Shown here one piece after another: positions 3,751 to 52,639 of a stretch of 64,000 bases of DNA. Each line of letters starts with the position of its first letter. Position 1 is the first letter of the stretch. Where the stretch lies: positions 2,976,001 to 3,040,000 of the forward strand of contig NC_086097.1 of NCBI RefSeq assembly GCF_963921235.1. The letters are read 5' to 3'. The DNA comes from Mobula hypostoma. Taxonomy: Eukaryota. A program made the position numbers and the translations under genes. Below the pieces are notes generated by a model, which was given only the letters and a program-made list of their open reading frames with translations, searched no databases and had not been told where the DNA came from.

Positions 3751-5138
3751 ATTAACATTTGGCTTGGCCCTGATGAACAGTCTCAGCCTGAAATATTGAC
3801 AGTTTATTTCCCTTCATAGAGGCTGCCTGATTTGCTGAGTAACTCCAGCATGTTATGCGGAAAGAGATCTGAGGAAAAGAGAAGCAAGGTTGTTTAGGCA
3901 GTGGTGAACAAAGGGAATTTCTCAAATTGAGTGAAATCATGTGGCAAACGATGATGGTTATTTGTTGCTGATGTACTTCTGGCCTACTGGGAGGAAATGG
4001 CAAAAATGGTTTTTACATGGACAGGAAGAAAGAGTGTGTTGGTTCTCTTTTCTATTGAGTGTTACTTTGGTATTGTCACTCTGTAATACTGTAAACAGGA
4101 CAATTGATTTATTAATATATGAATCATCAGAATTGACGTGATGGTCAGGTGAGAGGAATCATTGTTATGACTAATTGTTCAGAGATTAAAAACAGTTTTT
4201 CATAGTACATGTGTATTGAGAGCTGGGCTGACTTGAGTTACTCGAGTGTGAAACTAAACCTCAGATGCTCATCAAAGAATGTAAGTTAGTAGCAATTGAT
4301 ATGTTTGAACTCGTGTCTGAAGTCAGAGAACAGAACAGTAAAGCACAGGAACAGGTCCTTCGGCCCACAATGTTGTTCCAAAGTAAGTAAATTAATAATA
4401 AAATGATCAACTAATCTAATGCCCTCTGCCGAAAGAATGTCCAGATCCTTCCATTCTCCTCACATTCATTCAAAAATCCCTTACGAAGTCTCTAAAGTAT
4501 CTGCCAGTGCTACCACACCAGGCAGCCATTCCAGGCACCCATCACTCTGTGCTTTAAAAAAAATTACTCCTCACCTCTCTTTAAGATGACTCCTCCTCAC
4601 CATAGATGCATGCGTTCTGGTATTAGACATTTCAACCCTGAGAAAAAGATACTGTCTGGCTACTCTATCTGTGCCTCTCATAATCCTATGAACCTCCGTC
4701 AGATCTCCCTCAGCCTCCACCATTCCAGAGAGTCAGAATCAGAATCAGGTTTTTTATCATGGGCATGTTTCGTGAAAAATAATATAATTTTGTAAAGTTG
4801 TTATAAAAATTAATTTAGATTTGGTAAAACATGTACTTGTTCAGTTTGAAGGTTTATGGGAAAGTCAGCTTACTGTACCTTTTACATTGTCTCCGTGCAG
4901 TAGCCGTGACTCCACTTGGCCCAGAATCTGTATGTGATCCAATTATTCAGTTCCTTCCCTTTCTCCGTTGGTAGAGAGCTCATGGTTAAGTCCCAGTCTT
5001 TCTAACCAACCAGTTGTTCTACTTCTCTGCGCTATAACTGAGAAGTGTTTTTAATGTTGTCATTGACTCTACTCAGTTTCTTAATCCATGAGCAAAACAG
5101 TGCAAATTCTCCAAGGAATTGAGAAGCAGTTCAGAATA

Positions 5139-8331: not shown

Positions 8332-8522
8332 GTTGGTGGTTATTGGGATAAGTGTTGCAGTACTGTGACACAACTGAAAGAAGGCTTGAATCGAATCCTG
8401 TGCCTCATTCCATACAATGTCATTAATCAGGCTGTGTGGGAAAGCATTATGCCAGAATGGTTGGAATCCATCCGAACTGAGGTGCCAGAAAGCCAGTTGA
8501 AAGAGTTTAAAGAAGTCTTAAG
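8332..8522 (+). CDS. UNC79: UNC79 exon B (191 nt, phase 0-2)
   Basis: tttattttcag|GTT ... TTA AG|gtatgt; VGGYWDKCCSTVTQLKEGLNRILCLIPYNVINQAVWESIMPEWLESIRTEVPESQLKEFKEVL(S). Confidence 0.95.
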
Positions 8523-8696
8523 GTATGTACTGGTTGTGTGTATCTAACTGCTTCAATTGTATAATTTTTTCTTAGTAATGTTACTTACTACCACTCCTCC
8601 ACACTCCACTACTTTATCATTTCCTGTCAGTCACCCTAGTGGCAGTTTATAAAGGCTACCGATGTATTTATACTTATTGTGTTTTTTTTATTATGG

Positions 8697-9030
8697 TAAC
8701 ACATCAAAAATGCTGGAGGAACTCAACAGGTCTGGCAGGATTCATGGAAATGGACAGCCAGTGTTTCAGGCTGAGACCTTTTCTTCACGACTGGAAAGGA
8801 AAGGGAAGATGCCACAGTAAAAAACTGGGGCAAAGGGAAGGAAGACAGCCTGAAGGTGATAGGTGAAGCCAGGTGGGCGGGAAAGATAAAGGGCTGGAGA
8901 GGAAGGAATCTGATGGGAGAGGAGAGTGGACCATAAGAGAATGGGAAGAAGGAGAGGCACCACGAGAGGTGATAGGCAGGTGAAGATAGGTACGAGGCCA
9001 GAGTGGAGAATAGAAGAAGAGAGGTGAGAG
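8697..9030 (-). mobile_element. Penelope-like element 3' remnant
   Basis: 'aaatgctggaggaactcaacaggtctggcagg' plus purine-rich tail homologous to the other PLE copies. Confidence 0.7.
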
Positions 9031-12200: not shown

Positions 12201-14750
12201 TACCTGTCTTATTGCACAGGACCAGATCTATGATAAAGCGTTCCCTTGTAGGTTCAGTAACATGCTGTTCAGGAAAGCCATCAGAAGGCTACCTTGACCA
12301 ACTTGATTCACCCAATCTATGTGCAAGTTAAAGTCCCCCACGATAACTGCTGTTCCATTCTTACATGCCTCAGATATTGCTCTGCTTATTGCCTGTGCCA
12401 CTGTAATGTTATTATTTGGTGGCCAATAGCAACTTCCATCAGTGATTATTTTTCCCTTTACTATTCCTAATCTCTACCCAGATGGATTCAACATTCTGCT
12501 CCTTAGGACTTGTATTGTCTCTATTGCCCTGATCTCGTCCTTAATTAAGAGCGCTATCCCACCTCCCTTACTTTCCTGCTTATCCTTCCGTATTACTGAT
12601 ACCCTTGGATATTTAATTTAATTCCCAATCCTCTCCACACTGCAACCACGTAAAGTGCTCTTACACTCATTGTGCTTTTAAAGTCTTGTAGTCTTTCACT
12701 CTTTTGCACTTGACTTTTCTTCACCCCACTCTTACTTCTCTTTTTTAGCTTTTGCTTTTTCTTTATCCATGTTTCTCTTTATTAACTTATCCATACTTCT
12801 CCAATCTGTTGAATCTCCCCCCCCCAAACTATTTATTTTAAAGCCCTCTTCACAGCCTTAGTTATGCGATTCACTAGGATCCAGGTCCCATGACGGTTCA
12901 GGTGGAGCCCATCCCATTGGTACAGCTCCCTTCTTCCCCAATACTGTCGCCAGTTTCCCATGAATTCAAACCTATCTCTCCCACACCAATCCTTGAGCCA
13001 CACATTTAACTCTCTAATCTTCTTGACCCTATGCCAATTTGCATGTGGCTCAGGTAGTAATCCAGAGATTACTATTTTTTTGGTTTTGCTTTTTAATTTA
13101 GTCCCTAGCTGCTCAAATTCTCTCAGCAGAACCTCTTACTTTGTTCTGCCTACGTTTGGATATTGTTGGTACCCACATGGATCACAACAACTGGATCTTT
13201 CCCCTCCCACTGCAAATTGCTTTGCAGGTCGGATAAGATGTCCTGAACCTGGGCACCAGGCAGGCAGCACAGCCTTCTTTGAAACTCATGGCATTGTGGT
13301 CACTGGATGCAAGGTGTTCCCCTGCACAAACTTCTGACACCTGCACTGTCTTATTCCCTGACAGCAGATCTAGTATCACACACTCTCTCATTGGGACTTC
13401 TACATACTTATGACGGAAACTCTTCTGAACACATTAGACAACAATCCATGCAACATACATCAAAGTTGCTGGTGAACACAGCAGGCCAAGCAGCATCTAT
13501 AGGAAGAGGCGCAGTCGATGTTTCAGGCCGATCTCTTAACAAATTTGTTCCTCTAAATCCCTCGGACTGCTTGGTGGTCTGTAATATAGTCCCATTAATT
13601 TGGTCATACCTTTTTCATTTCTCAGTTCCACCCACAGCACCTCACTAGTTGAGTTCTCCAGTCTGTTCCGATAGAGCATTGCAGTGACATTTCCCCTGAC
13701 TGGTAATGCCATCTGTCTTCCTTTAATTTCCTCCCACTCTGTCATGTCTAAACAACAGAGCCCCAGAATATTGAGCTGCCAGTCCTACCCCTCCTGCAAC
13801 CAAGTCTCACTAATGACTACAACATCATAAATTCCAGGTGTTAATCCATGCCATGAGCTCATCTGCCTTTCCTACGGTACTTGCATTGAAATATACGCAG
13901 CTCAGGAAATTAGTCGTACCATGCTCAACCTTTTGGTTCTGACTTTGAGGTCTTACCAACATCTGTCTCCACAACCCCTCCACTAACTGTTCTGGAACTC
14001 TTGTACCCATCCCTCTGCAACTCTAGTTCAAACCCCACATGCAGCATTAACAAACCTTCCCCTTAGGTTGTTAGTCCCCCTCTAGTTCAGGTGCAAACTG
14101 TCCCTTCTGTATGAATCCCACTTTCCCTGGAAGAGAGCCTAATGATCCAAAAATCTTAAGCCCTCCCTCCTGCACCAACTCCTTAGCCATGTATTAAACT
14201 GTATACTCTTTCTAGTTCTGATCTCACTGGCATGTGGTACGGGTAGCAATCCTGAGATCACAACCCTGGAGGTCCTGCCCTTTAACTTAGCACCTAACTC
14301 CCTGAACTCCCTGTGCTGAACCTCGTCATTCGTCCTACCCACGTCATTGGTACCTGCATGAACCACGACCTCTGGTTGTTCACCCTCTCACTTTAGAATG
14401 CTGAAGACTCAATCCGAGGTGTTCTGGACCTTGGAGCCTGGGAGGCAACCTACCATCTGGGTATCTCTTACTTGCCCACTGAACCTCCTGTCCATTACCT
14501 GAAGTAATGAATCCCCTATCACCACGGCATGGCTCTTCTCCCCCATTCCGTTCTGAATCACAGAGGGAGGCTCAGTGCCAGAGACCTGACTGCTATGACT
14601 TTCCTCTTTGTGGTCATCCCCCCCATTACAGTATCCAAAGTGGGGGATGGCCACAGGGGTACTCTGCACTGGCTCCTTAAACTCTTTCCTCTCTCCCAGT
14701 TTCCCGTGACCTGCACCTTGGGTGTAACTACCCCTCTGTATGTCATCTCA
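9215..14750 (-). mobile_element. Cluster of decayed antisense CR1 LINEs (RT, APE endonuclease and ORF1 SGNH-esterase parts)
   Basis: Peptides LVRPNLE, VDVVYMDFSKA, KSPDPDGMHPRVL, YYRPP, VIGDS, VHAGTNDVG; many stops and frameshifts. Confidence 0.85.
11731..12074. mobile_element. 344-bp insertion of a dispersed repeat (RTE-associated UTR-like) into CR1, with a 17-bp flanking duplication
   Basis: tctccattgtttaggca at 11714-11730 and 12075-12091; a related longer copy lies at about 39150-39690; family assignment tentative. Confidence 0.6.
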
Positions 14751-15106: not shown

Positions 15107-15230
15107 CAAAATGTTTGATGTTGAACTTTGCCCATTGCCATTTTCCTTGGAAGAAATGTTTGGTTTTATTAGCTGTCGATTCACTGGCTACCCCGCTTCA
15201 GTCCAGGAACAAGCGTTACTTTGGCTTCAT
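15107..15230 (+). CDS. UNC79: UNC79 exon C (124 nt, phase 2-0)
   Basis: tttcag|C AAA ATG ... CTT CAT|gtaagt; KMFDVELCPLPFSLEEMFGFISCRFTGYPASVQEQALLWLH; absent from the ORF track (short) but phase-compatible with both neighbours. Confidence 0.95.
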
Positions 15231-15370
15231 GTAAGTTTTTAAAAAATCTTTAATCTGAAGGTTTAGTTTGAAAGTCAGTTGAGATGTCAGTGATGTTCTG
15301 CGGGGCTGGGTGCTGGGACCACTTCTTTTTATGCTCTATATAAATTATTTAGATGATTGAATAAATGTTA

Positions 15371-16470
15371 GTCCCCCTTGGATTCAAATGCAAGTCATCC
15401 TTTTTGTACAGGTCACGTCTGCCCCAAAAGAGGTCCCAATGATCCAGAAATCTGAATCCCTGCCCCGTGCTCTAACCCCTCAGCCACGCATTTATCCTTC
15501 ACCTCACTCTATTCCTATACTCACTGTCGCGTGGCACAGGTAGTGATTACTACCTTTTGAGGTCCTGCTTTTCAACTTCTTTCCTAACTCTCTGTAGTCT
15601 GTTTTCAGGACCTCCTCCCTTTTCCTACCTATGTCATTGGTACCAATATGTACCACGACCTCTGGCTGTTCACCTTCCCACTTCAGGATATTGTGAACAC
15701 AATCAGAAACATCCCGGACCCTGGAACCAGGGAGGCAAACTACCATCCGTGTTTCTTTCCTGTGTCCACAGAATTGCCTGTCTGACCCCCTAACTATAGA
15801 GTCCCCTATCACTGCTGCCATCCTCTTCCTTTCCCTGCCCTTCTATGCCACATGGCCGGACTCTGTGCCAGAGGTGCGGCCACTTTTGCTCCCCCAGGTA
15901 GGCTGTCCCCCTGAACAGTACTCAGACAGGAGTACTTATTGTTAAGGGGGACAGCCACAGGGGTACTCTCCAGTATCTGACTCTTGCCCTTCCCTCTCCT
16001 GACTGTTACCCATTTATCTGTCTCCCGAGGCCCCAGTGCGACTACTTGCCTATAGCTCCTCTCTATCGTCTCCTCACTTTCCCTGACCAGACGAAGGTCA
16101 TCGAGCTGCATCTCCAGTTCACTAACATGGTCCCTAAGGAGCTGCAGCTCGACACACCTGGCCCGTAGCTGACATCCAGTACAGAATACTGGCCTCGCAG
16201 ACATTCTTCCTATTCCTATTCTTCACAATTAACTTACCTCGCCTCGACCCGTTGAGCCAAAGCTCTCTGACTCCCTCTTCTCTGGTGCCTGCTCTATAAA
16301 ACTGTCTTCTTTTAAGATTCTTCCCGCTGGTCTAACTTGCTGAAGTCCACGTGCCTGAGCAGTCGTGCCTTGATCAAACCACTGAAGAAAAAATGCACTC
16401 CTTTTAAATTCTTCCTGCTGGTCTAACTCACTGAAGTTCACGTGCCTACTCAGTTGTGACTTGATCTGTC
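15371..16470 (-). mobile_element. CR1 5' portion (tandem-repeated 5' UTR and ORF1) nested in a sense CR1
   Basis: ORF1 motifs (CTGC, leucine zipper, VIGDSIVR, VHIGTNDIG); ~60-bp duplicated unit at about 16318-16376 and 16409-16467; flanked by sense CR1 RT pieces at 15285-15365 and 16471-17340. Confidence 0.8.
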
Positions 16471-17340
16471 AACTTGGACAGATTAGGGGAATGGGCAAGA
16501 AAGTGGCAAATGAAATACAATGTTGGAAAATGCATGATCATGCACTTTGGTAGTAGAAATAAACCTGTGGGCTATTTTCTAAATGGAGAGAAAATCCAGG
16601 AATCTGAGCTGCCGAGGGACTTGGGAGTCCTTGTGCAGAACACCCTGAAGGTTAACTTGCAGGTTAACTTGCAGGTTCAGTTGATGGTGAGGAAAGCAAG
16701 TACGATGTTAGCATTTATTTCAAGGGGTCTAGAATACAAGAGCAAGGATGTGATGCTGAGGCTTTATAAGGCACTGGTGAGGCTTCACCTTGAGTATTGT
16801 GAACAGGTTTGGGCTCCTCATCTTAGAAAAGATACGCTGGCATTGGAGAGGATCCAGAGGAGGTTCACAAGAATGATTCCAGGAATGAAAGGGTTATCAT
16901 ATGAGGAACGTTTGATGGCTCTGGGTCTGTACTCGCTGGAATTCTGAAGGATGAGGGGGATCTCATTGAAACCTTTTGAACGTTGAAAGGCCTAGACAGA
17001 ATAGATGTGGAAAGGATGTTTCCCATGGTGAGAGAGTCTAGAACAAGAAGGCATAGCCTCAGGATAGAGGGGCACCCTTTCAAAACAGAGAAACTTCTTA
17101 GCCAAAGGGTGGTGAATTTGTGGAATTTGTTGCCACCTGCAACTGTGGAGGCCAGGTTGGTGGGTGTACTTAAGCCAGAGATTGATAGATTCTTGATCGG
17201 ACATGGCATCAAAGGTTATGGGGAGAAGATTGGGAACTGGGATTGAGGAGAAGATAGAAAAATAAGGATCAGCCATGATTGAATGGCGGAGCAGACTCGA
17301 TGGGCCAGATGGCCTAATTCTGATCTGATGTCTTATGGAA
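16471..17340 (+). mobile_element. CR1 LINE 3' part (sense to host gene)
   Basis: DRLGEWARKWQMKYNVGKC...LVRLHLEYC...QRVVNLWN; CR1 3' UTR hairpin region and tail. Confidence 0.9.
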
Positions 17341-17734
17341 ATTTTAGTGATGTTGACTATTCCTGGAGATGTAAATTGTCATAACTGCATGCTATTGTGT
17401 AACAAGAAAAGGAACTTTTCTGAAGACGAGATTCTGCAGGGCAGGCGGTGTCTAGGAAAGGGCGTAAATACTGAATGATCCTGTTCTAGGACTGCACTAT
17501 GCTTCTGTGTGCTGATGTGCTGCATACTGCAGCAGATTTTACATTCGATGGAAACTCCCAATATTTAGGGTACAGTATATGGACTCACTTTAAAATGAGT
17601 TTGATGCCACCTGTTACGTAGACATTAGGTTTTCATACATTTGCCAAAGTAAATGTATACATATGCTCAGTTAGTTTCTTGTCCTCTTGTTCTATTGTCC
17701 TCGTGCTGGTGGTCTGAGTGTCCTCGGGTGAAAA

Positions 17735-18015
17735 TAATAACAGTATTGTGCTAACTACTGTTAGAGCGCGAGGCTGTTCTGGAGTTCTGATTTCAATTTC
17801 GGTCCTGTATGTAAGGAGTTTGTATGTTCTCTCTGTAAATCGTGGGTTTTCTCTGGGTGCTCTGGTTCCATCCCACAGCCCAAAGATATTAGTTAGTGAA
17901 TTGGTCACTTTAAGTTGTCTTGTGATTAGGCGAGAGTTAAATAGGTCAGTTGCTGGGTGGTGCACTGCATTGGACTGGAAGGATCTGTTCTATGCTGTAT
18001 CTCAAAATGAAATAA
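17735..18015 (+). mobile_element. V-SINE (HE1-like) SINE; another copy at about 45270-45430
   Basis: V-domain-like core 'ggagtttgtatgttctctctgt...gtgggttttctctgggtgctctggttccatcccacagcccaaaga'. Confidence 0.7.
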
Positions 18016-18084
18016 GTAATTTCATCTGTCTTCAAATCTAGTGTGTAAAAACGCAGGTACGGTACACCTATTGTGTAAACTCTA

Positions 18085-19056
18085 GAATAATAACGCAGTA
18101 CCTCCATCCTGATCAAAAAGGCACAACAGCGCCTTTATTTCCTGCGGAGCATCAAGAAAGCTCACCTCTGTCCCAGGACACTGATGGACTTTTACCGCTG
18201 TACCATTGAGAGCATACTCACCAACTGCATCTCAGTGTGGTATGGCAATTGTCCCGTATCGGACCGCAAAGCACTCCAGTGTGTGGTGAAAACTGCCCAG
18301 TGGATTATTGGCACCCAATTGCCCACCATTGAGAACATCTACCGTAAACGCTGTCTGGGCAGGGCGAAAAGCATCATCAAGTATGCATCTCACCCTAACC
18401 ATGGACTTTTTACTCTCCTCCCATCCAGTAGGCGCTACAGGAGACTCCGCTCCCGCACCAGCAGGCACAGGAAGAGCTTCTTCCCTGAGGCTGTGACCCT
18501 GCTGAACCTCACATCACAGCGCTAAGCAGTATTGCATCCATATTGTACTGTCTCAGTACTTTTATATTTGTGTGCTGTAGCACTTACTTTTTATTCACAG
18601 TTATTTTGTAAATAACACTATTCTTTGCATTTCTGGTTAACTGCATTTCATTGGCTTTGTATCGGTACTCGGTACAATGACAATAAAATTATGATGGGTA
18701 TAGATAGAGTGAACTTTTTCCACTGAGGCAAGGGGAGAAAAAAACCAGAGGACATGGGTTTAGGGTGAAGGGGGAAAAGTTTAAAGGGAACATTAGGGGG
18801 GGCTTCTTCACACAGAGAGTGGTGGGAGTATGGAATGAGCTGCCAGACGAGGTGGTAAATGCGGGTTCTTTTTTAACATTTAATAATAAATTGGACAGAT
18901 ACATGGATGGGAGGTGTATGGAAGGATATGGTCCGTGTGCAGGTCGGTGGGACTAGGCAGAAAATGGTTCGGCACAGCCAAGAAGGGCCAAAAGGCCTGT
19001 TTCTGTGCTGTAGTTTCTATGGTTTAAAGTTGAATCTAATCTAATCTAATCTAATA
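18085..19056 (+). mobile_element. Rex/Babar LINE 3' end with a CR1 3' fragment (about 18690-19024) inserted in its tail
   Basis: ORF 18184-18525 FYRCTIESILTNCISVWYGNC...LLPSSRRYRRLRSRTSRHRKSFFPEAV; (ctaat)n tail; CR1 peptide FFTQRVVGVWNELP. Confidence 0.8.
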
Positions 19057-19322
19057 TTGAGGAAGTTTGTCTGGAACTTTGATTTTGTACTGCAGTTTTT
19101 AGCATCTAGTCACGCAAAAGCCGGAAGTTCAATACGACGTCTATTAAAGAAATTACAGCACATCTAAACATTTGTAATGATTCTTTAGTTAGAGGAGCTT
19201 TAAATTACTTGAAGGTCAAAAAACTACAGATTTTGAAATCCCCAAGTTAAAAGAGAAAGCATTGCAAATGTTTAGCAGGGTCAGGCAGCGTCTAGAGAGA
19301 AAAGAAGAGTTAATTGTTCAAG

Positions 19323-20230
19323 CAACATACATCAAAGTTGCTGGTGAACGCAGCAGGCCAAGCAGCATCTATAGGAAGAGGCGCAGTCGACGTTTCAGGC
19401 CGAGACCCTTCGTCAGGACTAACTGAAGGAAGAGTGAGTAAGGGATTTGAAAGCTGGAGGGGGAGGGGGAGATGCAAAATGATAGGAGAAGACAGGAGGG
19501 GGAGGGATAGAGCCGAGAGCTGGACAGGTGATAGGCAAAAGGGGATACGAGAGGATCATGGGACAGGAGGTCCGGGAAGAAAGACGGGGGGGGTGGTGAC
19601 CCAGAGGATGGGCAAGAGGTATATTCAGAGGGACAGAGGGAGAAAAAGGAGAGTGAGAGAAAGAATGTGTGCATAAAAATGAGTAACAGCTGGAGTACGA
19701 GGGGGAGGTGGGGCCTAGCGGAAGTTAGAGAAGTCAATGTTCATGCCATCAGGTTGGAGGCTACCCAGACGGAATATAAGGTGTTGTTCCTCCAACCTGA
19801 GTGTGGCTTCATCTTTACAGTAGAGGAGGCCGTGGATAGACATGTCAGAATGGGAATGGGATGTGGAATTAAAATGTGTGGCCACTGGGAGATCCTGCTT
19901 TCTCTGGCGGACAGAGCGTAGATGTTCAGCAAAGCGGTCTCCCAGTCTGCGTCGGGTCTCACCAATATATAAAAGGCCACATCGGGAGCACCGGACGCAG
20001 TATATCACCCCAGTCGACTCACAGGTGAAGTGATGCCTCACCTGGAAGGACTGTTTGGGGCCCTGAATGGTGGTAAGGGAGGAAGTGTAAGGGCATGTGT
20101 AGCACTTGTTCCGCTTACACGGATAAATGCCAGGAGGGAGATCAGTGGGGAGGGATGGGGGGGACGAATGGACAAGGGAGTTGTGTATGTTGCTTGAATT
20201 TCCAGCATCTGCAGAATTCCTGTTGTTTGC
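19323..20230 (-). mobile_element. Penelope-like element: GIY-YIG endonuclease C-terminus, 3' UTR and inverted terminal piece, with 15-bp TSD
   Basis: ORF 19715-20041 FTCESTGVIYCVRCSRCGLLYIGETRRRLGDRFAEH...VATHFN...LEEQHLIFRLGSLQPDGMN; TSD agttaattgttcaag at 19308-19322 and 20231-20245. Confidence 0.92.
19385..19420 (-). ncRNA. Minimal type-I hammerhead ribozyme motif in the Penelope-like element
   Basis: Minus strand reads AGUC-CUGACGA-AGGGUCUCGGCCU-GAAA-CGUC-GACU: helix I AGUC/GACU, CUGANGA and GAAA cores, GUC triplet, palindromic ACGU in place of helix III. Confidence 0.75.
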
Positions 20231-20399
20231 AGTTAATTGTTCAAGTTGCTTTGCCTAGTGTGTCCATAATTTTCTAGTTATTTACCAATTTTAATTTGAA
20301 AATTCTGAAGTGGAAAATAAACAGAAATGAAAAATGCCAATCTAATATAAAATATAGCTTCAGAATGAATTTTAAGTATTGAGTCAGAGTTTTTGAGTG

Positions 20400-21290
20400 A
20401 TAGAATCAGGTTTAATATCACTGGCATATGTCGAGAAATTTATTAACTTTGTAGCAGCAGGACAATGCAATACATAATAGAAAACTGTGAATTACATTAA
20501 GTATAGATATATTAAATAGTTAAATAAGTAGTGCAAAAATAGAAACAAAACAGTAGTGAGGTAGTGTTCATGGGTTCAATGTCCATTTATAAATTGGATG
20601 GCAGAGGGGAAGAAGCCGTTCCTGAATCATTGAGTGTGTGCCTTCAGACTTGTGTATCTCCTTCCTGATGGTAGCAATGAGAACAAGGCTTAACCTGGAT
20701 GATGGGGTCTTTAATGACGAATGTCATATTGAATACTCTTTGAAGATGCCCGAGATGCTGGGGAGGCTAGTGCCTATGATGGAGCTGACTAAGTCTACAA
20801 CTCTCTGTAGCTTACTTCAATCCTGTGCAGTTGCACCCACCCACCCTCCCCCCCCCCCGCCGCCATAACAGGCCCTGATGCAGCCAGTTTAAATGCTAGG
20901 CACAGTACACCTGTAGAAATTTGCCAGTATTTTTGGTGACATATCAGCTCTCCTCAGACTCCTCGTTAAATATAGCAGCAGGCATGTCTCCTTTGTAGCT
21001 GCATAGATATTTTGGGTCCAGGTTAGATCCTCAGAGACATTGACACCCAGAAACTTAAAATTACTCACTTCTCCTACTTCTGTTCCCTCTATGAGGACTG
21101 TTGTGTGTTCTGTCATTTTACGCTTTCTGATGTCCACAGTCAGTTCTTTGGTCTTACTGACGTTGAGCGCAAGGTTGGTGCTGCGACACCACTCCACTAT
21201 ATATCCTACTCCTGTACGCCTTTTTGTCACCATCTGAGATTCTGCCAACAATGGTTGTATCATCAGCAAATTTATAGATGGAAACAAGCC
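20400..21290 (-). mobile_element. Rex/Babar-like LINE RT fragment
   Basis: IYKFADDTTIVGRISDG, WCRSTNLALNVSKTKELTVDIRK, FKFLGVNVSEDLTW. Confidence 0.8.
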
Positions 21291-21560
21291 CTTCAGTCCA
21301 GCTCATCTCTTGCCCAGCAAGTTGATCCTGCCTGCCTGCATTTGGTCTGTACCCTCCTAAACCTCTTCTGTCCATGTACTGTACTTTATGTGCCTGTCTC
21401 CAGCACTACTTCTAATAAAGGAACCATTTAATGCTGCCATTATTTGTTGTTTGTAATATATATATAGATTCTAACAGATATAAAGTAATTTTCATTATAA
21501 ATTAACATCTACATTAATACATATTATTAACATTAACAGCATTACATATTTATTATTTAT

Positions 21561-21930
21561 GGGGGTGGTGGAATGGAGATGCATCTCTACCAAAGAGGGT
21601 GTAAGACACTCCTTCCCTGCACTAGCCTGCAGGCCTTTCTTGAGCAAAGTGTAGCACTTGCTTAGCCCCGATCAGGGTCATGTGAAGTCATGGATAGTCA
21701 CATGAGCAGCTGGTGCCTATCACAAGCCCCTGTTATGTGACCACCGACGCCAGGCAGACAATCTCTGAAGAGTATTGATAATGGCTGGGGTCACCCGTCT
21801 TGTAAAGACACTGCCCATAAGAGGCAATGGCAAACTTCTTGTTGAAAAATTTGCGAAGAACAATCATGGTTATGGGAAGACCATGATCACTAACATCATA
21901 CGACATGGCACATATCAAATGAATGAGGAT
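21561..21930 (+). mobile_element. RTE-related SINE-like repeat
   Basis: Contains 'gaggcaatggcaaac' and ends 'catggcac...atgaatga', resembling the 3' end of the RTE at 49684 (catggcacctgatgatga). Confidence 0.5.
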
Positions 21931-22097
21931 TATTATATAATGTATTATAAAAATATAATATTTTATATCATAACTATAACTAACATAATTAATTCTCATT
22001 GTCTGTAATCTTGAAATGTGATTACTTTTTGCATGAAGAATGATCAAATGATGTTTTGAAGGCTATTTCTGTTTTGAACTTGATTTTTTTTGTCTAG

Positions 22098-22238
22098 GTA
22101 TTATCAGAATTGGATATAACAGTTCCTCTACAGCTGTTGATAAGTATGTTTTCTGATGGGGTGAACTCAGTCAAAGAACTATCAAATCAAAGAAATGTAC
22201 GAACCAGTGAGCAGCCAGGCAACCCAACTGCTCGAAGG
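22098..22238 (+). CDS. UNC79: UNC79 exon D (141 nt, phase 0-0)
   Basis: ttttgtctag|GTA ... AGG|gtaatt; VLSELDITVPLQLLISMFSDGVNSVKELSNQRNVRTSEQPGNPTARR. Confidence 0.95.
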
Positions 22239-22768: not shown

Positions 22769-23381
22769 TACAAACAAGAGAAAATCTGCAGGTGCTGGAA
22801 ATCCAAGCAACACACAAAATACTGGAGGAACTCTGCAGGCCAGGCAGCATCCATGGAAAAGATTATTGTCAAAGTTTTGGGCTGAGACCGTTCATCAGAA
22901 CGGGAGAAAAAAGACGAGTCAGAGTTAGAAGGTGGGGGGAGGGAAGGAAGAAACACAGGTGATAGATGAAACCGGGGGGTGAGTGGGGTGGAGGGCTGAA
23001 GTAAAGAGGTGAGAAGTTTATTGGTGACAGAGATATAGGGCTGGAGAAGGGGGAATCTGGAGGGGGAAGGCAGAAGGCCATGGAAGAAAGAAAAGGGGGA
23101 GGAGCACCAGAGGGAAGTGATGGGCAGGTAAGGAGAGAGAGAAAAGGGAATAGGGAATGGTGAAGGAGGGGTGCATTACCAGAAATTTGAGAAATTGATG
23201 TTTATGTCATCAGGTTGCAGGCAACCCAGACGGAATATAAGATGTTGCTCCTCCAAACTGAGGGTGGCTTCATCACGACTGAAGGGGAGGCCATGGACTG
23301 ACATGTTGGAATGGGAATGGGAAGTGGAATTAAAATGCTGGCCACTGGGAGGTAATTAAAATGGGTGGCCACTGGGAGATT
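22769..23381 (-). mobile_element. Penelope-like element remnant (end of GIY-YIG and 3' UTR)
   Basis: Homologous to 19323-19900; degenerate hammerhead region at about 22867-22901. Confidence 0.8.
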
Positions 23382-25881: not shown

Positions 25882-28800
25882 ACATATACTGCATGAATTC
25901 AAATACAGCACCTTCAGACCTATATTCACCCTTTTCAATTTTATCTACTTTTTATGTTGCAATTCATGCTGTTAACTGCAAGTTTGTCCTATCAATAGTC
26001 ACTCCTCTCTACACATTGCCTCTGTTTGTCTACCAGCTACATTGTCCTCAGCTCTTTTATCCAGCTTTTCTATGATGATACCTGGATTGATATGTATGCA
26101 CGGGGGACTTCCGGTAGCGCTCATGGAGTGAAGTCGCGTTCTTGACTTGCTCCATTACCTCTGAGTTTTTCTTCTTATGATCAGCTATATTTTAATTAAC
26201 CATTAAGGCATCAACTTTTACAATACTTTGAAACAAATTGGGCTCTTCGATAATTGGATGCGTTTAAGGTCTGCTATGTCTAAGAATGGAAAAAACGGGA
26301 AGGACGGCAAACCTCCGGTTAGACCGAAAGGTACCGATTTCCCTCCGACTGAACCACCGGTGACTTTGAAAGCTATATCGGAGCTAATTCGTGAGGAAAT
26401 TTCAACTAGTTTCCAGAAAATTGCCGATTCAATCGAGAAGATACAAATATCTATTACGGAACATCGGTCGGCTATATCTGATCTTCAAAAATCCACGCAA
26501 CAAAGTGAGCTCAAGATGGAGAAAATCGAAGAAACAATTAATGTAATGAAGAAGAAACTCGACTTTCTGACCTTTAAAAACTCTGACTTAGAATCCAGAA
26601 TGTGACGGCAGAATCTTCGAATGATTGGGGTGCGTGAAGCTGTTGAATCCGATTACCCTATGAAGTATTTTTCTCAACTTTTAAAAGATGCATTTCCTAC
26701 TGTATTTCCTGACCAACCACCGTTATTGGATCGTGTTCACAGAGTTCCATCATACTTGCCTAGGTCAGATAAACCTAGACATGTCATTTTACGTTTTCAT
26801 TACTTTCAAGACAAGGAGAAAGTGTTTCGTTTCGTTCGATCTAAAGGTTACATTGATTTTCTGGATCTTAAGTTCCGATTCGTGGAGGATTTCAGTAAAC
26901 CAATCCGGGATCAACGGGTTCGTTACAGATCTGTGATGTCGGAACTCTGCAAGATGGATTTAAAACCAGCGCTGCTTTACCCTGCACCTTTAAGGATTCT
27001 TACGCTGGATGGAGCCCTCCGTTTTTTGAATCTCCATCGGATGCCCAGAGTTATCTGGATCAATTTTCACCTTCAACATCTTAATCGTAATTTTTTAACT
27101 ATCTCCGTTGATCGGAGGTTGTGAATTTGTCGGTCTTAATTTTTTTTTGCCCTATATGGGCAGAAAAGTTTATTTTTGATTATTTAATATGGTTGCTAAA
27201 CTTTCTTTTTAACTGCGTCATTTCTTTCTTTTTCCCAGGGGATTCTGGGTGGTTATTTCCTCACCGTCATTTTACGTATTTCCTTTGTGGCCTTAAATTT
27301 TGTAGTTTTTTTAAATCTATTTTGTTTTGTAGGTTTTTATAACTAGTTTATGTTAATAATCTCATTTTTTTTGTTTTGTCTACTCATGGGTCTGGGGTTT
27401 ATTGCGTTTTTTAAAATATTTTCTGGCTTTTATTCTGTTATATTATGTGTTTATTTTAATTGAGTTATCTTTTTTTTATTCTTTTACTGTTTTATAATCA
27501 GCTGATCTTTTTTATATTTACACTTTTTTTAGGGAGCGTATACCGGAAGTCATGGGGGTAGTTTTAGTACTTGCTTCTTTCGGGCTGGTCTGCGTTAGAT
27601 TTAGCTTTGAGGCCATGGGGTGGGGGGTGGTGGGAGGGGCTTCACATTTTAGTTTTTTTCTTCTTGGGCTATGTACACTATTGAAGTATTGGTTGTGTTC
27701 TCCTTCCCGGTATCTCTTGTATGTTCTGTTCCCTTTCCGGGTTCGTGGGTCGAGCCTATCATCAATCCTCCTTGTTGCGGGTTGACTTTAGGGTTTATGG
27801 AGTCTATTATTAATTTTGTCTCCTAGAATACTAATGGTCTTAATCATTCTATTAAAATGAAAAAAATTTTTAAAGTGTTCCGGAGACCTAAAGCACAAAT
27901 TTTATTTTTACAAGAGACCCATGTGCGGAGGGGGGACAGACTACGTTTTTTTAAATTCTGGAAGGTAAAACAGTTTCATTCGAACTCCAATGCTAAGATT
28001 CGAGGCGTCTCTATTTTTATAGACTCCTCAATTACTTTTATACAACATGATATTATTTCTGATCCAAATGGTAGATTTCTATTGGTTAGTGGTCTACTAT
28101 TTAATAAAAAGGTAGTTTTGGTTAATGTCTATGCTCCTAATATGGACTGTCCGGAATTTTATAAATCATTATTTAATCAGTTCCCGAATTTGAATGAGTT
28201 TTCATTGATCTGGGGCGGAGATCTTAATACCTGTTTGTCTCCAGCTTTGGACCGTTCGGCTCCTCTACGGACCTGACCTAATAAATCTGCAACTTTGATT
28301 AATTCATTCCTCTCTGATTCTGGGTCGATGGACATTTGGCGTTTTTTGCATCCTCAGGAAAAAGATTTTTCTTTTTTTTCACATGTTCACCATTCCTATT
28401 CAAGAATTGATTATTTCTTTATTGATTCTCGTCTTATTTCTTCAGTGATTAAATGTGATTATGACTCTGTAACCATTTTGGATCATGCTTCACTTAAGCT
28501 TTCTATTAAAATTCTGGCCAATACACAAAATAATAGACAATGGCGTTTTAATTCGCTGTTGCTTCAGGACTCGGATTTTGTTAACTTTATGAATGAACGG
28601 ATTGATCTTTTTTGTACAATTAACTATACAGAGGATATTTCTGTGAACATTCTTTGGGATACTTTTAAAGCTTATATTCGTGGTCAGATTATCTCGTATT
28701 CTGCTGCTTTGAGGAAGAAGCTGAAGCAGGAGGAGTTGGTAATTGTGGACAAGATTAGGGAAATTGATAAGAAATATGTTATAGCTCCTTCTGAGGAGTT

Positions 28801-29797
28801 ATATAAACAAAGAACTGAACTTCAAATGGAACACAGTTTATTACTTTCGTCCTCGATTGTAAACCAATTAAAGAAAACAAGAAGTGAATTTTATGTACAC
28901 AGTGACAAAATTGGCAAACTGTTGGCTAATCAACTGAAGTCTACTTATGCTAAATCTCAAATTAATCAGATTTATAACCAAAATGACCGACTGATGCTTG
29001 ATCATGTGGGGATTAATCAAACCTTCTGTGATTTTTATTCTTCCTTATATCAATCAGAGTCTCCTTGAGATTCTAAATATATGAATGATTTTTTAGATAA
29101 TCTAGACTTCCCTGAGATTTCACAGGATATGTCTTCTATGTTAGATACTCCCATTACCACAGATGAGATTAAGAATGTTATTTTCTCTATGAATTTGGGG
29201 AAAGCTCCTGGCCCTGATGGGTTTACTGTAGAATTTTATAAATGTTTTGCTCCTTCATTAATCCCTTGGTTCTGTAGGGTTTTCGAGGCTTCATTAAAAC
29301 TTGGTAAACTTCCTGAATCTTTCAATAGAGCGTCAATTTCTCTAATATTAAAGAAGGATAAAGATCCTGCTCAATGTGCATCTTATAGACCAGTATCTTT
29401 ATTAAATGTTGATTCTAAAGTTTTTTCTAAGTTACTAACAAATAGATTAGAAAAAGTACTTCCTTCTATTATTTCGGAAGACCAAACAGGTTTTATTAAA
29501 GGTCGTTATGTGGCGACCCACTTTCTGGCATCCACGAACCGGCTCACGAAACAGCGCGCGCAGGCAGAGGGCCGGCAGCAAAAAGGGCGCCAGGCCATCT
29601 TCACCAGCAGGGGGAAAATCCCGCACGCAGAAAGGGTCTGGGAATATGCATTCCCCACAGTAGTCCCGCCCAGGGAGGGCGGGAACGGGAGGGCTTTAAA
29701 GCGGGCCGCGAAGTTTGAATAAATCTCTTTCATCGCAACTCTAACTCACCGACTCCGTGTGGTTATTCTAGCGCTGTGTGTAGCACATCGCTACAAT

Positions 29798-29811
29798 TGG
29801 TGACCCCGACG
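29798..29811 (+). promoter_or_regulatory. Primer-binding site complementary to the tRNA-Trp 3' end (also 44792-44805 on the minus strand)
   Basis: TGGTGACCCCGACG lies 2 nt after the 5' LTR and is complementary to ...CGUCGGGGUCACCA of vertebrate tRNA-Trp. Confidence 0.85.
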
Positions 29812-30447
29812 GCCCAAACGATATTTGGACCAGAGATGACCGACGCTGCATCTGTTCACGCAGTTTCGTTAAAACTGCCAAGCTTCTGGATGCTGCGACC
29901 CCATTTATGGTTCGAACAAGCAGAAGCACAATTCCACATTCAGCAGATAACCTCGGAGTCCACTCGCTACTACTACGTGCTGAGCTCCCTCGACCAGGAG
30001 ACTGCTACACAAGTTGAGGAGTTTATACAGTCACCCCCGGAGGACGGCAAATACACAGCATTCAAAGCCCTGCTCATAAGGACTTTCGGACTCGCACGGC
30101 GCGAATGAGCACGCCGCTTAATGCACCTGGATGGTTTGGGAGACAGGCCGCCGTCAGCATTAATGAACGAGATGCTGGCCCTGGCTGAAGGACACAAACC
30201 CTGCCTCATGTTTGAGCAGGCGTTCCTAGAGCAACTGCCCGAGGACATATGCCTGCTGCTGTCCGATGCAGATTTCAGCAACCCCCGGGAGGTGGCGGCC
30301 CGAGCAGATGTGCTGTGGAATGCCAGGAAAGAGAGAGGGGCATCCGTCGCACAGATCATCAAGCCGTGAGCCCAACAAACAATGGTGTTTCTACCACCAG
30401 CGGTGGGGCACGGAGGCCCGCCGCTGCAGACCGCCCTGCAAATTCCC

Positions 30448-30498
30448 GGGAAACGCCAGGGCCAGCCGTTGCTGATGGCTATGGCGGCTGGCCATCAG
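30448..30498 (+). promoter_or_regulatory. -1 programmed ribosomal frameshift signal (gag/pol)
   Basis: G GGA AAC in the gag frame, 7-nt spacer, stem 1 ccagccg/cggctgg, stem 2 ctgatgg/ccatcag; pol is in the -1 frame. Confidence 0.8.
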
Positions 30499-33400
30499 GA
30501 CAGCCTCCTGTACGTCTGGGACAAGCAGTCGGGACGCCGCTTTTTGGTCGACACCGAAGCGGAGATCAGCATCTGACCTCCAACGAGTTACGACACCCGC
30601 AACAGAGAACCGGGACCCACCCTGAGGGCCACTAATGGCAGCACAATACGAACCTACGGCACCTGCACGGTGCGGCTACAGTTCAGCTCCAGCCGGTTCA
30701 CGTGGGACTTCACACTGGCCGCCGTGGCCCAACCACTGCTGGGGGCAGATTTTCTATGAGCCCACAGCCTGCTGGTCGACTTGCAAGGGAAGCGATTAGT
30801 CCACGCCAAGACTTTTCAAACGTTCTCCCTGGGTGAAGCACAGTTGCCAGCCCCACACCTGGATTCCATCACGCTGTCCGACGACGAATTCACCAGGGTC
30901 CTGGCAGATTTCCCATCAGTACTGACACCGCAGTTCACGGCAGCCATGCCCAGACACGGAGTACAGCACCACATCCCGACCCAGGGACCACCCCTCCACG
31001 CCCGTGCTTGAAGGCTTCCCCCGGACAAGCTCCGACTGGCGAAGGAGGAGTTCAAGAAGATGGAGGAATTGGGGATCATATGACGGTCCGACAGCCCATG
31101 GGCCTCCCCCCTTCACATGGTGCCCAAGGCAACGGGGGGCTGGAGACCATGCGGTGACTACCGCAGACTGAACGAGGCTACAACGCCAGACCGCTACCCT
31201 GTGCCGCACATTCAAGACTTCGCAGCAAACCTACACGGTGCAAGGATCTTTTCCAAGGTAGACCTCGTCCGGGGATACCATCAAATCCCTGTACATCCGG
31301 ACGACATCCCCAAAACAGCACTTATCACCCCGTTCGGACTTTTCGAATTCCTCCGAATGCTGTTTGGTCTAAAGAATGCCGCACAGACTTTCCAGCGGCT
31401 AATGGACGCGGTGGGACACGACCTGGACTTTGCATTCATCTATTTGGACGACATCCTCATAGCCAGCAGTAGTCGGTAGGAGCATCTGTCCCACCTCCGC
31501 CAGCTCTACTCCCGCCTGAGTGAATTCGGCCTTACAATCAATCCAGCCAAATGCCAGTTCGGACTCGACACCATCGACTTCCTGGGCCACAGGATTACTA
31601 AAGACGGGGCAACCCCGCTGCCCGCCAAGGTAGACGTGGTCCGCCACTTCCCCCGACCCAACACAATCAAAGGCTTGCAGGAATTCGTGGATATGGTGAA
31701 TTTCTACCACCGTTTCCTCCCCTCAGCAGCCCGAACCATGTGCCCCTTGTTCACTCTAATGTCGGGTAAGGGCAAGGATACTACCTGGAACGAAGAGGCC
31801 GCAACCGCTTTCGTTAAAACCAAAGAAGCCTTGGCAAACGCCGCGATGCTAGTGCACCCCAGAACGGACGTTCCTACTGCCCTCACGGTGGACGCATCCA
31901 ACACAGCAGTCGGTGGAGTGCTGGAACAACTCATCGAGGGTCGCTGGCAACCCCTGGCGTTCTTCAGCAAACACCTACAACCACCAGAACTCAAATACAG
32001 TGCTTTTGACCGGGAGCTATTGGCACTATACCTGGCAATCCGGCATTTCAGGTACTTCTTAGAAGGTAGGCCCTTCACCGCGTTCACAGACCACAAACCG
32101 CTTACCTTTGCGTTCACTAAGGTGTCCGACCCCTGGTCGTCCTGCCAGCAGCGACATCTGTCCTACATCTCCGAGTACACGACGGACACCCGGCATGTCT
32201 CTGGAAAGAACAATGTCGTGGCGGACGCACTTTCCAGACCTACCATACAGGCCCTGTCCCAGGGGGTGGACTATGCAGCGCTGGCAGAGGCACAGCAGGC
32301 AGACGCTGAGATCTCCAGTTACAGGACTGCAGTCTCCGGTTTGCAGCTCCAAGACCTCCCCGTAGGCCCAGGTGAGAGGACCCTACTATGTGACGTAGCT
32401 ACTGGCCAACCCCGCCCCGTCGTCCCAGCAGCCTGGCGCCGGCGGGTGTTCGAATCCATTCACAACTTAGCGCACCCCTCCATCAGGACAACTGTCCGGC
32501 TGGTCTCCCAACAGGTTCGTGTGGCATGGACTGCGTAAACAGGTCAGTGAATGGGCCAAAACGTGCATGCAGTGCCAAACGGCCAAGGTGCAGCGGCACA
32601 CCAAGGCTCCACCGCAGCAGTTCGAACCCACCCGCCGGAGGTTCGACCACATCCATGTGGATATTGTGGGGCCCCTGCCAGTGTCACGAGGAGCGCGGTA
32701 CCTCCTAACTGTGATAGACCGGTTCACCAGATGGCCAGAGGCAGTCCCGCTCAGCGACACCACCTCCGAATCCTGCGCCCGAGCACTGATCGCAACCTGG
32801 GTAGCACGCTTTGGGGTACCGGCCCACATTACCTCCGACAGGGGCGCCCAGTTCACCTCCAGCCTGTGGTCGGCTATGACCAGCCTTTTAGGAACACAGC
32901 TACACCACACAACTGCCTACCACCCACAGTCGAACGGACTAGTGGAGCGTTTCCACCGTCACCTGAAATCGGCTCTCATAGCCCACCTGGAGGGGCCTAA
33001 CTGGGTGGACGAACTTCCCTGGGTCCTGCTCGGAATCCGCACGGCGCCCAAAGAGGATCTACACACCTCGTCGGCCGAGTTGGTGTATGGCGCGCCCCTG
33101 GTCGTCCCAGGAGAGTTCATACCAGCCCCAAGGGGGCAAGAGGAAGAACCCACAGCAGTCCTGGACAGACTACGGGAGAGGCTCGGTAACCTGGCCCCCA
33201 TCCCCACTTCACAGCATGGACAGAGCCCGACCTGCGTACCCAAAGACCTGCAGAACTGTAAGTTTCTTTTTGTACGACGGGGCGGACACCGGGCACGCTA
33301 CAGCGGCCCTACGAGGGGCCGTTTAAGGTGATCAGGAACAACGGGTCCACATTCGTGCTGGACATTGGGGGGAGAGAGGAGGTTTTCACGGTGGACCGAC

Positions 33401-36287
33401 TCAAACCGGCCCATGTGGACTTGGCGCAACCAGTCCAGGCTCAGGCACCGCGGCGCAGGGGCAGACCTCCCAAACAGAGGCCGATCCAGACTGTGGACAT
33501 TGGGGGAGGTATCGCCGGTTCTGGGGGGGGGGGTTATGTGGCGACCCACTTTCTGGCACCCACGAACCGGCTCACGAAACAGCGCACGCAGGCAGAGGGC
33601 CGGCAGCAAAAAGGGCGCCAGGCCATCTTCACCAGCAGGGGGAAAATCCCGTGCGCAGAAAGGGTCTGGGAATATGCATTCCCCACAGTAGTCCCGCCCG
33701 GGGAGGGCGGGAACGGGAAGGCTTTAAAGCGGGCCGCGAAGTTTGAATAAATCTCTTTCTTCGCAACTCTAACTCACCGACTCCGTGTGGTTATTCTAGC
33801 GCTGTGTGTAGCACATCGCTACAGTTACTCTTTTTATAATATTCGCACACTGTTAAATATTGTTTATACTCCCTCACAAAATATTCCTGAGTGTGTTATC
33901 TCTTTAGATGCTGAGAAAGCTTTTGATAGAGTAGAATGGCCTTATTTATTTAAGGTGCTTGAAATGTTTAATTTTAGCTCGAAAGTTATATCCTGGATTA
34001 AACTGTTATATCATTCTGTGGCCTCGGTCCGTACTAACTCTTTAAGTTCACCTTTTTTCCCTCTTTTTCGAGGTACTCGACAAGGTTGTCCTCTTAGTCC
34101 TTTATTATTTGATATTGCATTAGAACCTCTTGCAATTGCCATTTGAGAATCTCCAAATATTACTGGGATAACTCGGGGCTTAAAGTCCCATAAAATATCA
34201 CTCTATGCTGATGACTTACTTTTATATATTTCTAATCCCCAAAAATCCATCCCGGCTGTTTTAGAGCTATTAGCACAATTTGGTCTTTTGTCAGGTTATA
34301 AATTAAATCTTAGTAAGAGTGAACTTTTCCCGATTAATAAACAACTTCCCTTATATCATAACTTTCCATTTAAATTGATTAATAATTATTTTTCATATCT
34401 TGGGATTAAAATTACTTGTAAATACAAAGATTTATTTAAGATTAACTTTTTACCATTAATAGACCATATTATTCAACTTTCATCTAAATGGTTTCCTTTA
34501 TATTTAACTTTGATTGGTCGTATTAATGCAGTTAAGATGTTTTTTTTGCCAAAATTTTTATATATATTTGAGGCATTACCAATCTTTGTTCCAAAATCTT
34601 TTTTTGACAAAGTCGACTCTAAAATTTCTTCATTTATTTGGCAAAATAAAAACCCGAGACTGGGTAAAATACATTTACAGAAAGCTAAGAGAGATGGAGG
34701 CTTAGCATTACCTAACTTTAGATTTTATTATTGGGCAATTAATATTCGACATATGAAATTCTGTTTACTTGACCAGGATATACTATCCATTCCTAAATGG
34801 GTAGCATTGGAATTACAATCTGTTCAGGGTTATACACTTGGCTCTATTTTAGGTTCCTCTCTTCCTTTTGATTTGAAACGCCTTAAACAGGTGTCTAACC
34901 CGATAGTTAAATATACCTTACGTATTTGGTTTCAATTCAGAAAATTTTTTGATCTTAATCAATTTGGGTTAGCGATTCCTATTTTAGGTAACATTTTTTC
35001 CTCCCTCTTTTACGGATCGTGCTTTTCAAATTTGGAAGACTAAGGGTATTTCACGGTTTTTGGATTTATTTTTAGATGGTTCCCTTATGTCTTTCGAACA
35101 ATTATCTAATAAATATAACTTATCAAGAATACATTTTTTTAGATATCTACAAGTTAGAAATTTTCTAAGTACTATACTTTCTTCCCTTCCAATGCTTCCT
35201 CCTACATACATTTTAGATACTATAATTAACCTTAATCCATGTCAGAAAGGTGCATCGGCTATGATTTATAATATTATTATGAAACTTAGGAAAGCTCCAT
35301 TTGATAAGGTTAGGGTAGACTGGGAACAGGAATTGGGATTTATCATTTCCGTGGATGACTGGGGGCAGATTTTACGATTAGTCAATACTTCCTCTATCTG
35401 TGCTAAACATTCCCTAATTCAATTTAAAGTTGTTCATAGAGCACATATGTCCAAAGATAAATTAGCGCGCTTTTATTCTCATATTAACCCTTTTTGTGAT
35501 AGATGTCCGGGGCAGATAGCCTCTTTAACTCATATGTTTCGGTCTTGCCCTACTCTGGAAACTTTTTGGAGAGACATTTTTAATATTATCTCCAAGGTAC
35601 TGAATATAGATATCTCTCCTCACCCTATTACTGCTATCTTTGGACTACCTAAAATTTCCAGTAATCTTTCCCCTTCAGCCCGTAGAATGATTGCATTTCT
35701 TACTTTAATGGCGAAAAGATGTATCTTACAACATTGGAAAGAGCTCAATGCTCCAACTACCTTTTTTTGGTTTTCTCAGACGATATTATGCTTGAATTTG
35801 GAGAAAATTAGAAGCAATCTTTATGACTCCTCATTTAAATTTGAACAGACCTGGAGATCTTTTATTCAATATTTTCATTTAATGTAATATATACCCGTCT
35901 TGTTTTTTTTACTGTTTTTAATGGAGGTCGGGATTGAGGACGTGATTTTAAGTTTTTTAACTCTGTTTGGTTTCAAGTTAGCCCATTGCTTTGCTTTGCT
36001 TTTAGTTAGTTGCACGGTGGGTTTTTTTTTTGGGGTTTTTTTTTCCTTTTCTCTATTGATATATATATAAAAAATAGTATACTATTATGTTACCTTGGTA
36101 CGTTATGTTTAAATTACATTGTTTGTAGTATTTTTTTTGTATTAATATCTTCTGTAATTTTATTATATTCTAACAGTGTATTAGTGCCTATATGGCTTAC
36201 CTTTTTGTATACTTATTCAATAAAAAGATTTAAAAAGAAAGAAAGATATGTATGCACATGGTGTGTTCATCCTTTTGAATCTAAACA

Positions 36288-37740: not shown

Positions 37741-38082
37741 AGTTGAAGTTCACTTATTACCATGGAGCCCTACACATGTATACCACCAAACGATACAATC
37801 TTCCTGCCAACCAAGGTATATAACACAGTACATATAACTCAAGCACAACACACGAAGTAATATTGCCACAAATAAATTAACAAATAATAAGATGTTTGCT
37901 TTGAAGTGGTTTTTCATTTCCCTTTGAGTGCTGTTTTGGTATCTGTATTATTTGAATATCACAATTGGTTTGGAATATATGTTACTGTTTCTAAGACAAG
38001 TACTTAAATGTTGTAATCAGTTTTGCTACTGTAGTGCATTGTGAACATATATATTAGTAAAGCTATGGACAACAGTACAGAC

Positions 38083-52532: not shown

Positions 52533-52639
52533 AAACACGAGGAAATCTGCAGATGCTGGAATTTCAAGCAACACACATAAAAGTTGCTGGTGAACGCTGC
52601 CTGGCCTGCTGCGTTCACCAGCAACTTTTATGTGTGTTG
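52533..52639. mobile_element. 107-bp Penelope-derived fold-back insertion with 14-bp TSD
   Basis: TSD catgataacaaccc at 52519-52532 and 52640-52653; sequence matches the PLE terminus at 19323 and 20180-20230. Confidence 0.85.

Follow-up and report, generated by a model that had tools for sequence, protein, structure and literature searches.

A complete minimal hammerhead motif in a young Penelope-like element within a UNC79 intron of Mobula hypostoma, probably carried as an inert passenger

A genuine and complete minimal hammerhead of a Penelope-like element was identified in a 64,000-nucleotide stretch of the Mobula hypostoma genome (contig NC_086097.1, positions 2,976,001 to 3,040,000), which is referred to here as the window and whose numbering is used throughout. 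The motif is that of an abundant ray Penelope family. With a probability of roughly 85%, we consider the copy that carries it to be a passenger, most likely without cleavage in vivo. At the UNC79 locus, where the element lies in an intron, the motif is probably inert.

On the minus strand, positions 19420-19385 read AGUC CUGACGA A GGGU CUCG GCCU GAAA CGU C GACU, and the parts of the motif, together with the sequence immediately upstream, are as follows.

19385..19420, minus strand: complete minimal type-I hammerhead, from sequence reading, descriptor and folding; it matches the consensus of PMC4209133 Fig. S3 except at 11.1
19420-19417 with 19388-19385, minus strand: helix I, four Watson-Crick pairs plus a U.G (five counting the wobble)
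19416-19410, minus strand: CUGACGA catalytic box
19409, minus strand: extra A, an unpaired base before helix II
19408-19405 with 19400-19397, minus strand: helix II, with loop CUCG and G10.1.U11.1 as closing pair
19396-19393, minus strand: GAAA catalytic box
19393-19390, minus strand: palindrome ACGU (A15.1-C15.2-G16.2-U16.1), in place of helix III
19421..19439, minus strand: pyrimidine-rich stretch that can pair with the CUGACGAAGGGU core (predicted inhibitory hairpin, from folding)

The initial annotation had described helix I, both cores, a short helix II and a GUC site, with a self-complementary ACGU instead of helix III and a cut between 19389 and 19388. Our rereading of the minus strand agrees on each of these points, and the predicted cut follows the GUC triplet, with C17 at 19389 and G1.1 at 19388. 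The UH cleavage site, CUGANGA and GAAA are thus all present in the ray motif, whereas neither an Rfam covariance match nor a stable helix III, by which canonical hammerheads are recognized, was found.

A sequence-only pattern (CTGANGAN{8,25}GAAACGT) had a single match in the window and was also matched by 2 of 100 shuffles. A structural descriptor that required both cores, at least three pairs in helix I and in helix II, and a paired 15.2/16.2 returned a single locus, on the minus strand, with none on the plus strand and none in 400 dinucleotide shuffles. The Rfam search gave 18 matches up to E=10, which were sub-threshold and unrelated and included no hammerhead family, so that curated covariance models give the motif no backing. 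A check by covariance models or by descriptor had been proposed for the motif, and only the descriptor speaks for it. An accidental lookalike could draw on this Rfam result and on the folding energy of the 36-mer, which is ordinary relative to its own shuffles (z -0.37). However, the descriptor's absence from all 400 shuffles and the placement of the motif in an element just where PMC4209133 puts such motifs leave chance resemblance with a negligible share of the probability.

The motif is an instance of the kind described in 2014 as minimal Penelope hammerheads (Cervera and De la Pena, PMC4209133). It shares with them the type-I topology, CUGANGA followed by one extra base, GAAA, a palindromic 15.1-16.1 without helix III, the UH triplet, a short helix I and U-rich upstream sequence, as well as the single 3' motif in 5'-truncated copies recorded in Table S1 of that work. 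In the Neptune row of Acropora digitifera the core letters are identical, and helix II likewise has four pairs with a four-nucleotide loop, accompanied by CGUC. The ray motif departs from the published consensus in having U rather than C at 11.1 and a helix II at the short end of the range. Cartilaginous fish do not appear among the 56 rows of Fig. S3.

Helix II allows two registers. In the preferred one, the extra A is followed by four pairs (G.U, G-C, G-C and U.G around the loop CUCG), giving -6.0 kcal/mol for the whole motif against -4.6 for three pairs starting with A-U, an advantage of 1.4. This register leaves one extra base after CUGANGA, as in the published minimal consensus (PMC4209133), and makes G10.1.U11.1 the closing pair. 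According to computed folding, U11.1 weakens helix II by 2.6 kcal/mol relative to C11.1. Although the G10.1-C11.1 pair is highly conserved in published minimal hammerheads, by our own count 8 of the 56 rows of PMC4209133 Fig. S3 have G.U at 10.1/11.1, and the pair is therefore a consensus feature and not an absolute one. Within the family contigs described below, U accounts for about 70-80% of depth at 11.1 and C for 20-31%. Reference bias does not explain this majority, because the alternative letter reaches up to 98% at other positions. We also rejected the idea that U11.1 is private CpG-decay damage of the studied copy, given that neighbouring CpG decay amounts to 6-11%.

The element carrying the motif, its borders and the flanking exons of the host gene are as follows.

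19308..19322, plus strand: left target-site duplication, 15 bp
19323..20183, minus strand: body of a 5'-truncated Penelope-like element, comprising the end of an open reading frame, a pyrimidine-rich 3' region and a pLTR with the hammerhead
19332..19359, minus strand: second conserved terminal-repeat block, downstream of the cut site (a depth peak, common to window copies)
19718..20182, minus strand: open C-terminal frame with a CKRNKCYTC linker (C-x4-C-x2-C) and GIY-YIG (VIY...YIG) with CxxC..H..H
19720-19718, minus strand: stop codon of the GIY-YIG frame, which runs from 20182 to 19718
20184..20230, plus strand: inverted terminal-repeat piece, 15 nt inverted to 19317-19331 plus a 32-nt tail
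20231..20245, plus strand: right target-site duplication, 15/15 identical to the left
15107..15230, plus strand: UNC79 exon upstream of the host intron, residues 650-690 of PDB 7wji_B
22098..22238, plus strand: UNC79 exon downstream of the host intron, from residue 691

On the minus strand, the stop codon is followed by about 300 nt of pyrimidine-rich sequence, the hammerhead and about 60 nt of terminal repeat; this places the hammerhead within the terminal repeat, on the 3' side of the endonuclease. The junction between body and tail, near 20183/20184, was inferred and is uncertain by a few bases. The endonuclease frame matches Pfam GIY-YIG with 23.8 bits (cut-off 22.6). Among its 21 matches in 167 candidate proteins, the best is P0002, 95% identical and bearing the source name Mobula hypostoma, and the remaining named matches are mostly from rays and sharks; against PDB sequences, the endonuclease fragment had no match. 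The reverse transcriptase (RT) part is missing from the studied copy. The homologues P0002 and P0012 are longer N-terminally and contain RT-type motifs by eye, with no Pfam RT match listed. A CX2-5CxxC zinc-finger-like linker between RT and endonuclease is described for Neptune and is shared with Nematis (PMC8557442). The element is endonuclease-positive and Neptune-like, with Neptune membership indicated by the linker motif alone. Pieces of the element frame also occur in annotated ray proteins, including mucin-2, divergent protein kinase domain 1C, chitinase domain-containing protein 1, ABHD14A and neuromedin-U receptor 1 isoforms, pointing to either exonisation or misannotation.

The anatomy of the insertion is that of a Penelope-like element. 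A 30-40 bp tail and an inverted 5' piece have been described for such elements (PMC8557442), and two internal reverse-transcription start sites have been found to bound the tail (PMC11167929). The studied copy combines 5' truncation, an inverted 5' piece and a tail of this length, the 32 nt being the sequence that comes after 19317 in other copies, according to the window copies at 52532 and 22771 and to the consensus of the loose ends that precede 19317 in contig runs X1 and X5. The last 6 bases of the left duplication (19317-19322) equal the element's terminal-repeat sequence at the insertion end, a microhomology that suggests, from this one case, annealing of a primer at the start point. 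As the copy spans the scissile bond, its template would have been uncut or religated there. A course of events consistent with this anatomy, although its order is inferred, would begin with two nicks by the endonuclease at an AT-rich site, one in each strand and 15 bp apart. After annealing through 6 bases to RNA that lies downstream of the motif, one end would be extended by about 860 nt, across the motif in its uncut state, and the other end would copy the 32-nt tail in the opposite direction.

Much of this resembles Poseidon of Anolis carolinensis (Frangieh et al. 2024, PMC11167929), which likewise has a terminal-repeat hammerhead, an AT-rich target, extension of both strands, two internal RT starts bounding the tail and an uncut RNA template. 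The ray element differs in its linker, which is the C-x4-C-x2-C form of the Neptune/Nematis type. In the one case at hand, its target has 6 bases in common with the start site, whereas the anole start was reported to lack homology to the DNA that is cut. The perfect target duplication and the open frame are signs of youth, and four letters of the copy (19382, 19454, 19474 and 19515) are found at 22-44% of X1 depth compared with 2-6% in X5. The GIY-YIG frame, the target duplication and the inverted tail thus bear out the assignment to Penelope-like elements made in the initial annotation, and the 15/15 duplication, the open frame and the run-biased letters support its description of a young, duplication-flanked copy. 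We attribute the intact state of the motif to the youth of the copy and not to retention by the host.

Plus-strand exons at 8333-8523, 15107-15230 and 22098-22238, and others starting from 24194 and from 38232, match consecutive UNC79 stretches in solved structures. Given that residues 650-690 and 691 onward are contiguous and that the flanking exons have splice sites, the host intron spans 15231-22097, and the element sits within it, antisense to UNC79. These exon matches confirm the intronic, antisense position that had been proposed, and the motif is consequently absent from the UNC79 pre-mRNA. Its position in an intron of a conserved gene invites comparison with the type-I hammerheads in amniote introns (RECK and others, PMC6155905). 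However, those are conserved across amniotes and probably domesticated, whereas the ray motif is minimal, antisense and recent. That it has been domesticated as a regulator of UNC79 is very improbable, since it lies on the strand opposite to the pre-mRNA, in a recent insertion and without helix III, and since two sense-strand relatives in the window (2558 and 3766) have damaged cores or helices. The UNC79 introns also contain two related LTR retrotransposons, at 29505-33826 (plus strand) and about 40824-45005 (minus strand), both with stops or frameshifts and with LTR pairs that are 97% and 91% identical. The first has RT, RNase H and integrase by Pfam and is nested in an L1-type LINE (about 26200-35900). 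Long pyrimidine-rich (C/T and C/A) degenerate tandem arrays occupy 36265-37750, just upstream of a UNC79 exon.

Several relatives of the element were observed elsewhere in the window. An 85-bp copy at 13447-13531 (minus strand) is 96% identical to the studied subfamily, is truncated in hammerhead loop 2 and has a mutated palindrome. At 52519-52653, a 107-bp Penelope insertion holds only sequence downstream of the hammerhead (tail plus an inverted piece) and has a perfect target duplication of 14 bp, the first bases of which overlap with the end of the element. In an older insertion of the Penelope family at 2101-2700 (plus strand, the sense strand of UNC79), both the GAAA box and the palindrome of the hammerhead are damaged. 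This insertion has a target duplication of 13 bp and an inverted 5' piece, and its long internal inverted repeat at 2190-2326 is the source of spurious Rfam miRNA matches. Decayed terminal-repeat copies of older subfamilies lie at 22771-23351 (minus), 8701-8792 (minus) and about 3762-3850 (plus), and the 22.8-kb copy retains part of the endonuclease and a tail in inverted orientation.

To describe the family beyond the window, contig runs X1 (98,227 records) and X5 (74,022) were aligned to 19220-19620 at 80% likeness. Raw-read runs X21 and X22, compared in the same way, contributed 0 reads. Summed depth reached millions on the element against 18-39 on the unique flank, where short-contig depth is not copy number, and the Penelope family is very abundant in Mobula hypostoma. 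Pattern scans for family copies in metagenome, prokaryote genome and viral contigs yielded nothing. Among 40 of 43 rows listed, with some X1 differences uncounted, nine differences fall inside the motif: seven CpG transitions at 6-11%, a C to U change at N7 at 15-16%, and the U to C change at 11.1. The threshold for a lineage variant was set at 13% of depth, a value chosen after seeing the table in order to exclude CpG decay. With this threshold, 2 of 36 positions of the whole motif and 23 of 242 flank positions were variable (Fisher P=0.75). Of the 30 positions under structural constraint, none was variable, which at the flank rate corresponds to P about 0.05 under a post hoc threshold. Catalytic positions were all kept across the family contigs, CpG decay apart, and helix changes in these contigs were one-sided only, with no two-sided compensatory change seen. 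The proposal that the core is better conserved than its flanks was therefore not refuted, and its backing is modest.

Depth in both runs peaks on the motif, at 12.9-14.2 million for 19388-19415 in X1 (8.1-8.2 below and 4.5 at 19430-19443) and at 23-27 million in X5 (10-11 below and 7.6 at 19430-19443). Among the best 12 of 720 rows of loose ends, 8 fall at the motif borders (19384/19385 or 19418-19420) and none at the cut site 19388/19389. We interpret the peak and the border ends mainly as divergent subfamilies that share only the 36-nt motif. The upstream break is explained in part by a 4-nt duplication peculiar to the studied subfamily, and in part may come from copies beginning there. The 19332-19359 block is nearly as deep as the hammerhead in both runs, which makes it a candidate signal at which the element's protein would bind or start. 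In X1, three contigs (summed depth 37) step back 35 bases across the motif, joining 19420 to 19386. This joint would represent a head-to-tail tandem hammerhead duplication at some locus of the genome, amounting to a natural cis dimer.

Regarding activity, published work shows that a single minimal motif has no detectable cleavage and that dimers and trimers cut weakly (PMC4209133). Cleavage by the anole motif required the element's protein, and the same report gives no RNA-seq reads starting or ending at the anole cut site (PMC11167929). In a tandem full-length parent RNA of the ray family, two motifs would be expected to pair through their ACGU palindromes and to swap helix I strands; judging from this published work, the resulting double hammerhead would cut after GUC, weakly and probably with the element protein.

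For the studied copy, folding disfavours the active state. For the core alone, where GACG pairs with CGUC, the active secondary structure is less favourable than the ensemble by 4.4 kcal/mol in a calculation that ignores tertiary contacts and has no active-ribozyme control. With 20-100 nt upstream and 15 nt downstream, the difference is 6.6-8.8 kcal/mol, again with no active-ribozyme control. The effect of the upstream hairpin depends on the 4-nt duplication, which adjoins helix I and is absent from older window copies; without it, 6.6 falls to 4.4 kcal/mol. Shuffled upstream flanks were as inhibitory in 25/300 and 45/300 cases, which is not significant and lends no support to reading the hairpin as a designed off-switch.

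Neither the descriptor nor inspection of relatives revealed an intact partner motif on either strand of the 64-kb window. The relatives at 2558, 3766, 8792, 13531 and 22902 all lack an intact motif, so there is no cis partner within the window. Copies with a 5' end at the cut site were likewise not found in the window: the 13447-13531 copy starts in loop 2, and the 52.5-kb copy starts about 35 nt downstream of the cut. The arrangement also differs from that of non-LTR retrozymes (Li, Clavereau and Pollet 2026, bioRxiv 10.64898/2026.07.22.740005), which similarly have type-I hammerheads from Penelope terminal repeats and are reported in the single chondrichthyan genome sampled. Those are tandem and non-coding, with at least 2 units and a complete motif in each, whereas the ray locus, with its single descriptor match in the window, is one motif in a truncated coding copy.

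The initial annotation had suggested that this copy may still be catalytic in antisense transcripts. With published monomers inactive, no partner in the window and the active fold disfavoured, that suggestion was not sustained. In its strongest form, it would have the copy cut in vivo at 19389/19388, with antisense UNC79-intron RNA dimerising in trans or receiving help from the element protein. In favour of such cutting, no core position is mutated, the family's abundance would supply partners, and five putative RNA runs hold 52-72% of the stretch's words, with locus and strand indistinguishable. The copy may form dimers in trans with abundant family transcripts. Nevertheless, the inactivity of monomers and the weakness of dimers (PMC4209133), the need for protein and the absence of RNA ends at the anole cut site (PMC11167929), and a double-hammerhead pairing that lies about 19 kcal/mol above the best dimer fold (no control) make cleavage at this locus quite unlikely. 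We therefore favour the reading of the copy as an uncleaved passenger.

A separate possibility concerns the family and is compatible with the passenger reading as regards the UNC79 locus. The ray-family motif could be kept for a non-catalytic role, such as protein binding or a promoter or template signal, or could simply hitchhike, with cleavage dispensable. We regard this as doubtful but deserving of more weight than any other alternative considered here. Dispensable cleavage would allow an allele with a weaker helix II to reach the majority, and U11.1 does hold most of the depth at its position despite its cost to helix II. The studied copy spans the cut site, and loose ends there are missing among the best 12 of 720 rows. 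Furthermore, catalytic hammerhead mutants left insertion in vitro unchanged (PMC11167929), and Naiad elements spread without canonical motifs (PMC8557442). On the other side, the G.U at 10.1/11.1 is shared by 8 of the 56 published representatives, and catalytic positions are kept across the family contigs, CpG decay apart.

A more speculative and unlikely proposal is that the dominant young ray lineage spread widely with a doubly damped hammerhead, combining the G.U that closes helix II with the 4-nt duplication, and that this would be a protein-gated ribozyme, silent as naked RNA and active only in the element ribonucleoprotein. If this were true, ray copies and subfamilies would constitute a ready-made variant library for what Penelope hammerheads do.

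Among the papers listed for Penelope-like elements or hammerheads in Mobula, sharks and other cartilaginous fish, and for dimeric Neptune hammerheads, no account of the ray family was found. The studied copy itself is of little importance. Its insertion, however, cleanly illustrates in vivo the model of two start sites, with one end starting at each tail border, and in this reading the long strand runs through an uncut ribozyme. Rays bear on the role of hammerheads in Penelope transposition (PMC8557442, PMC11167929), and their very abundant, recently active family carries two alleles of helix II that lend themselves to direct comparison.
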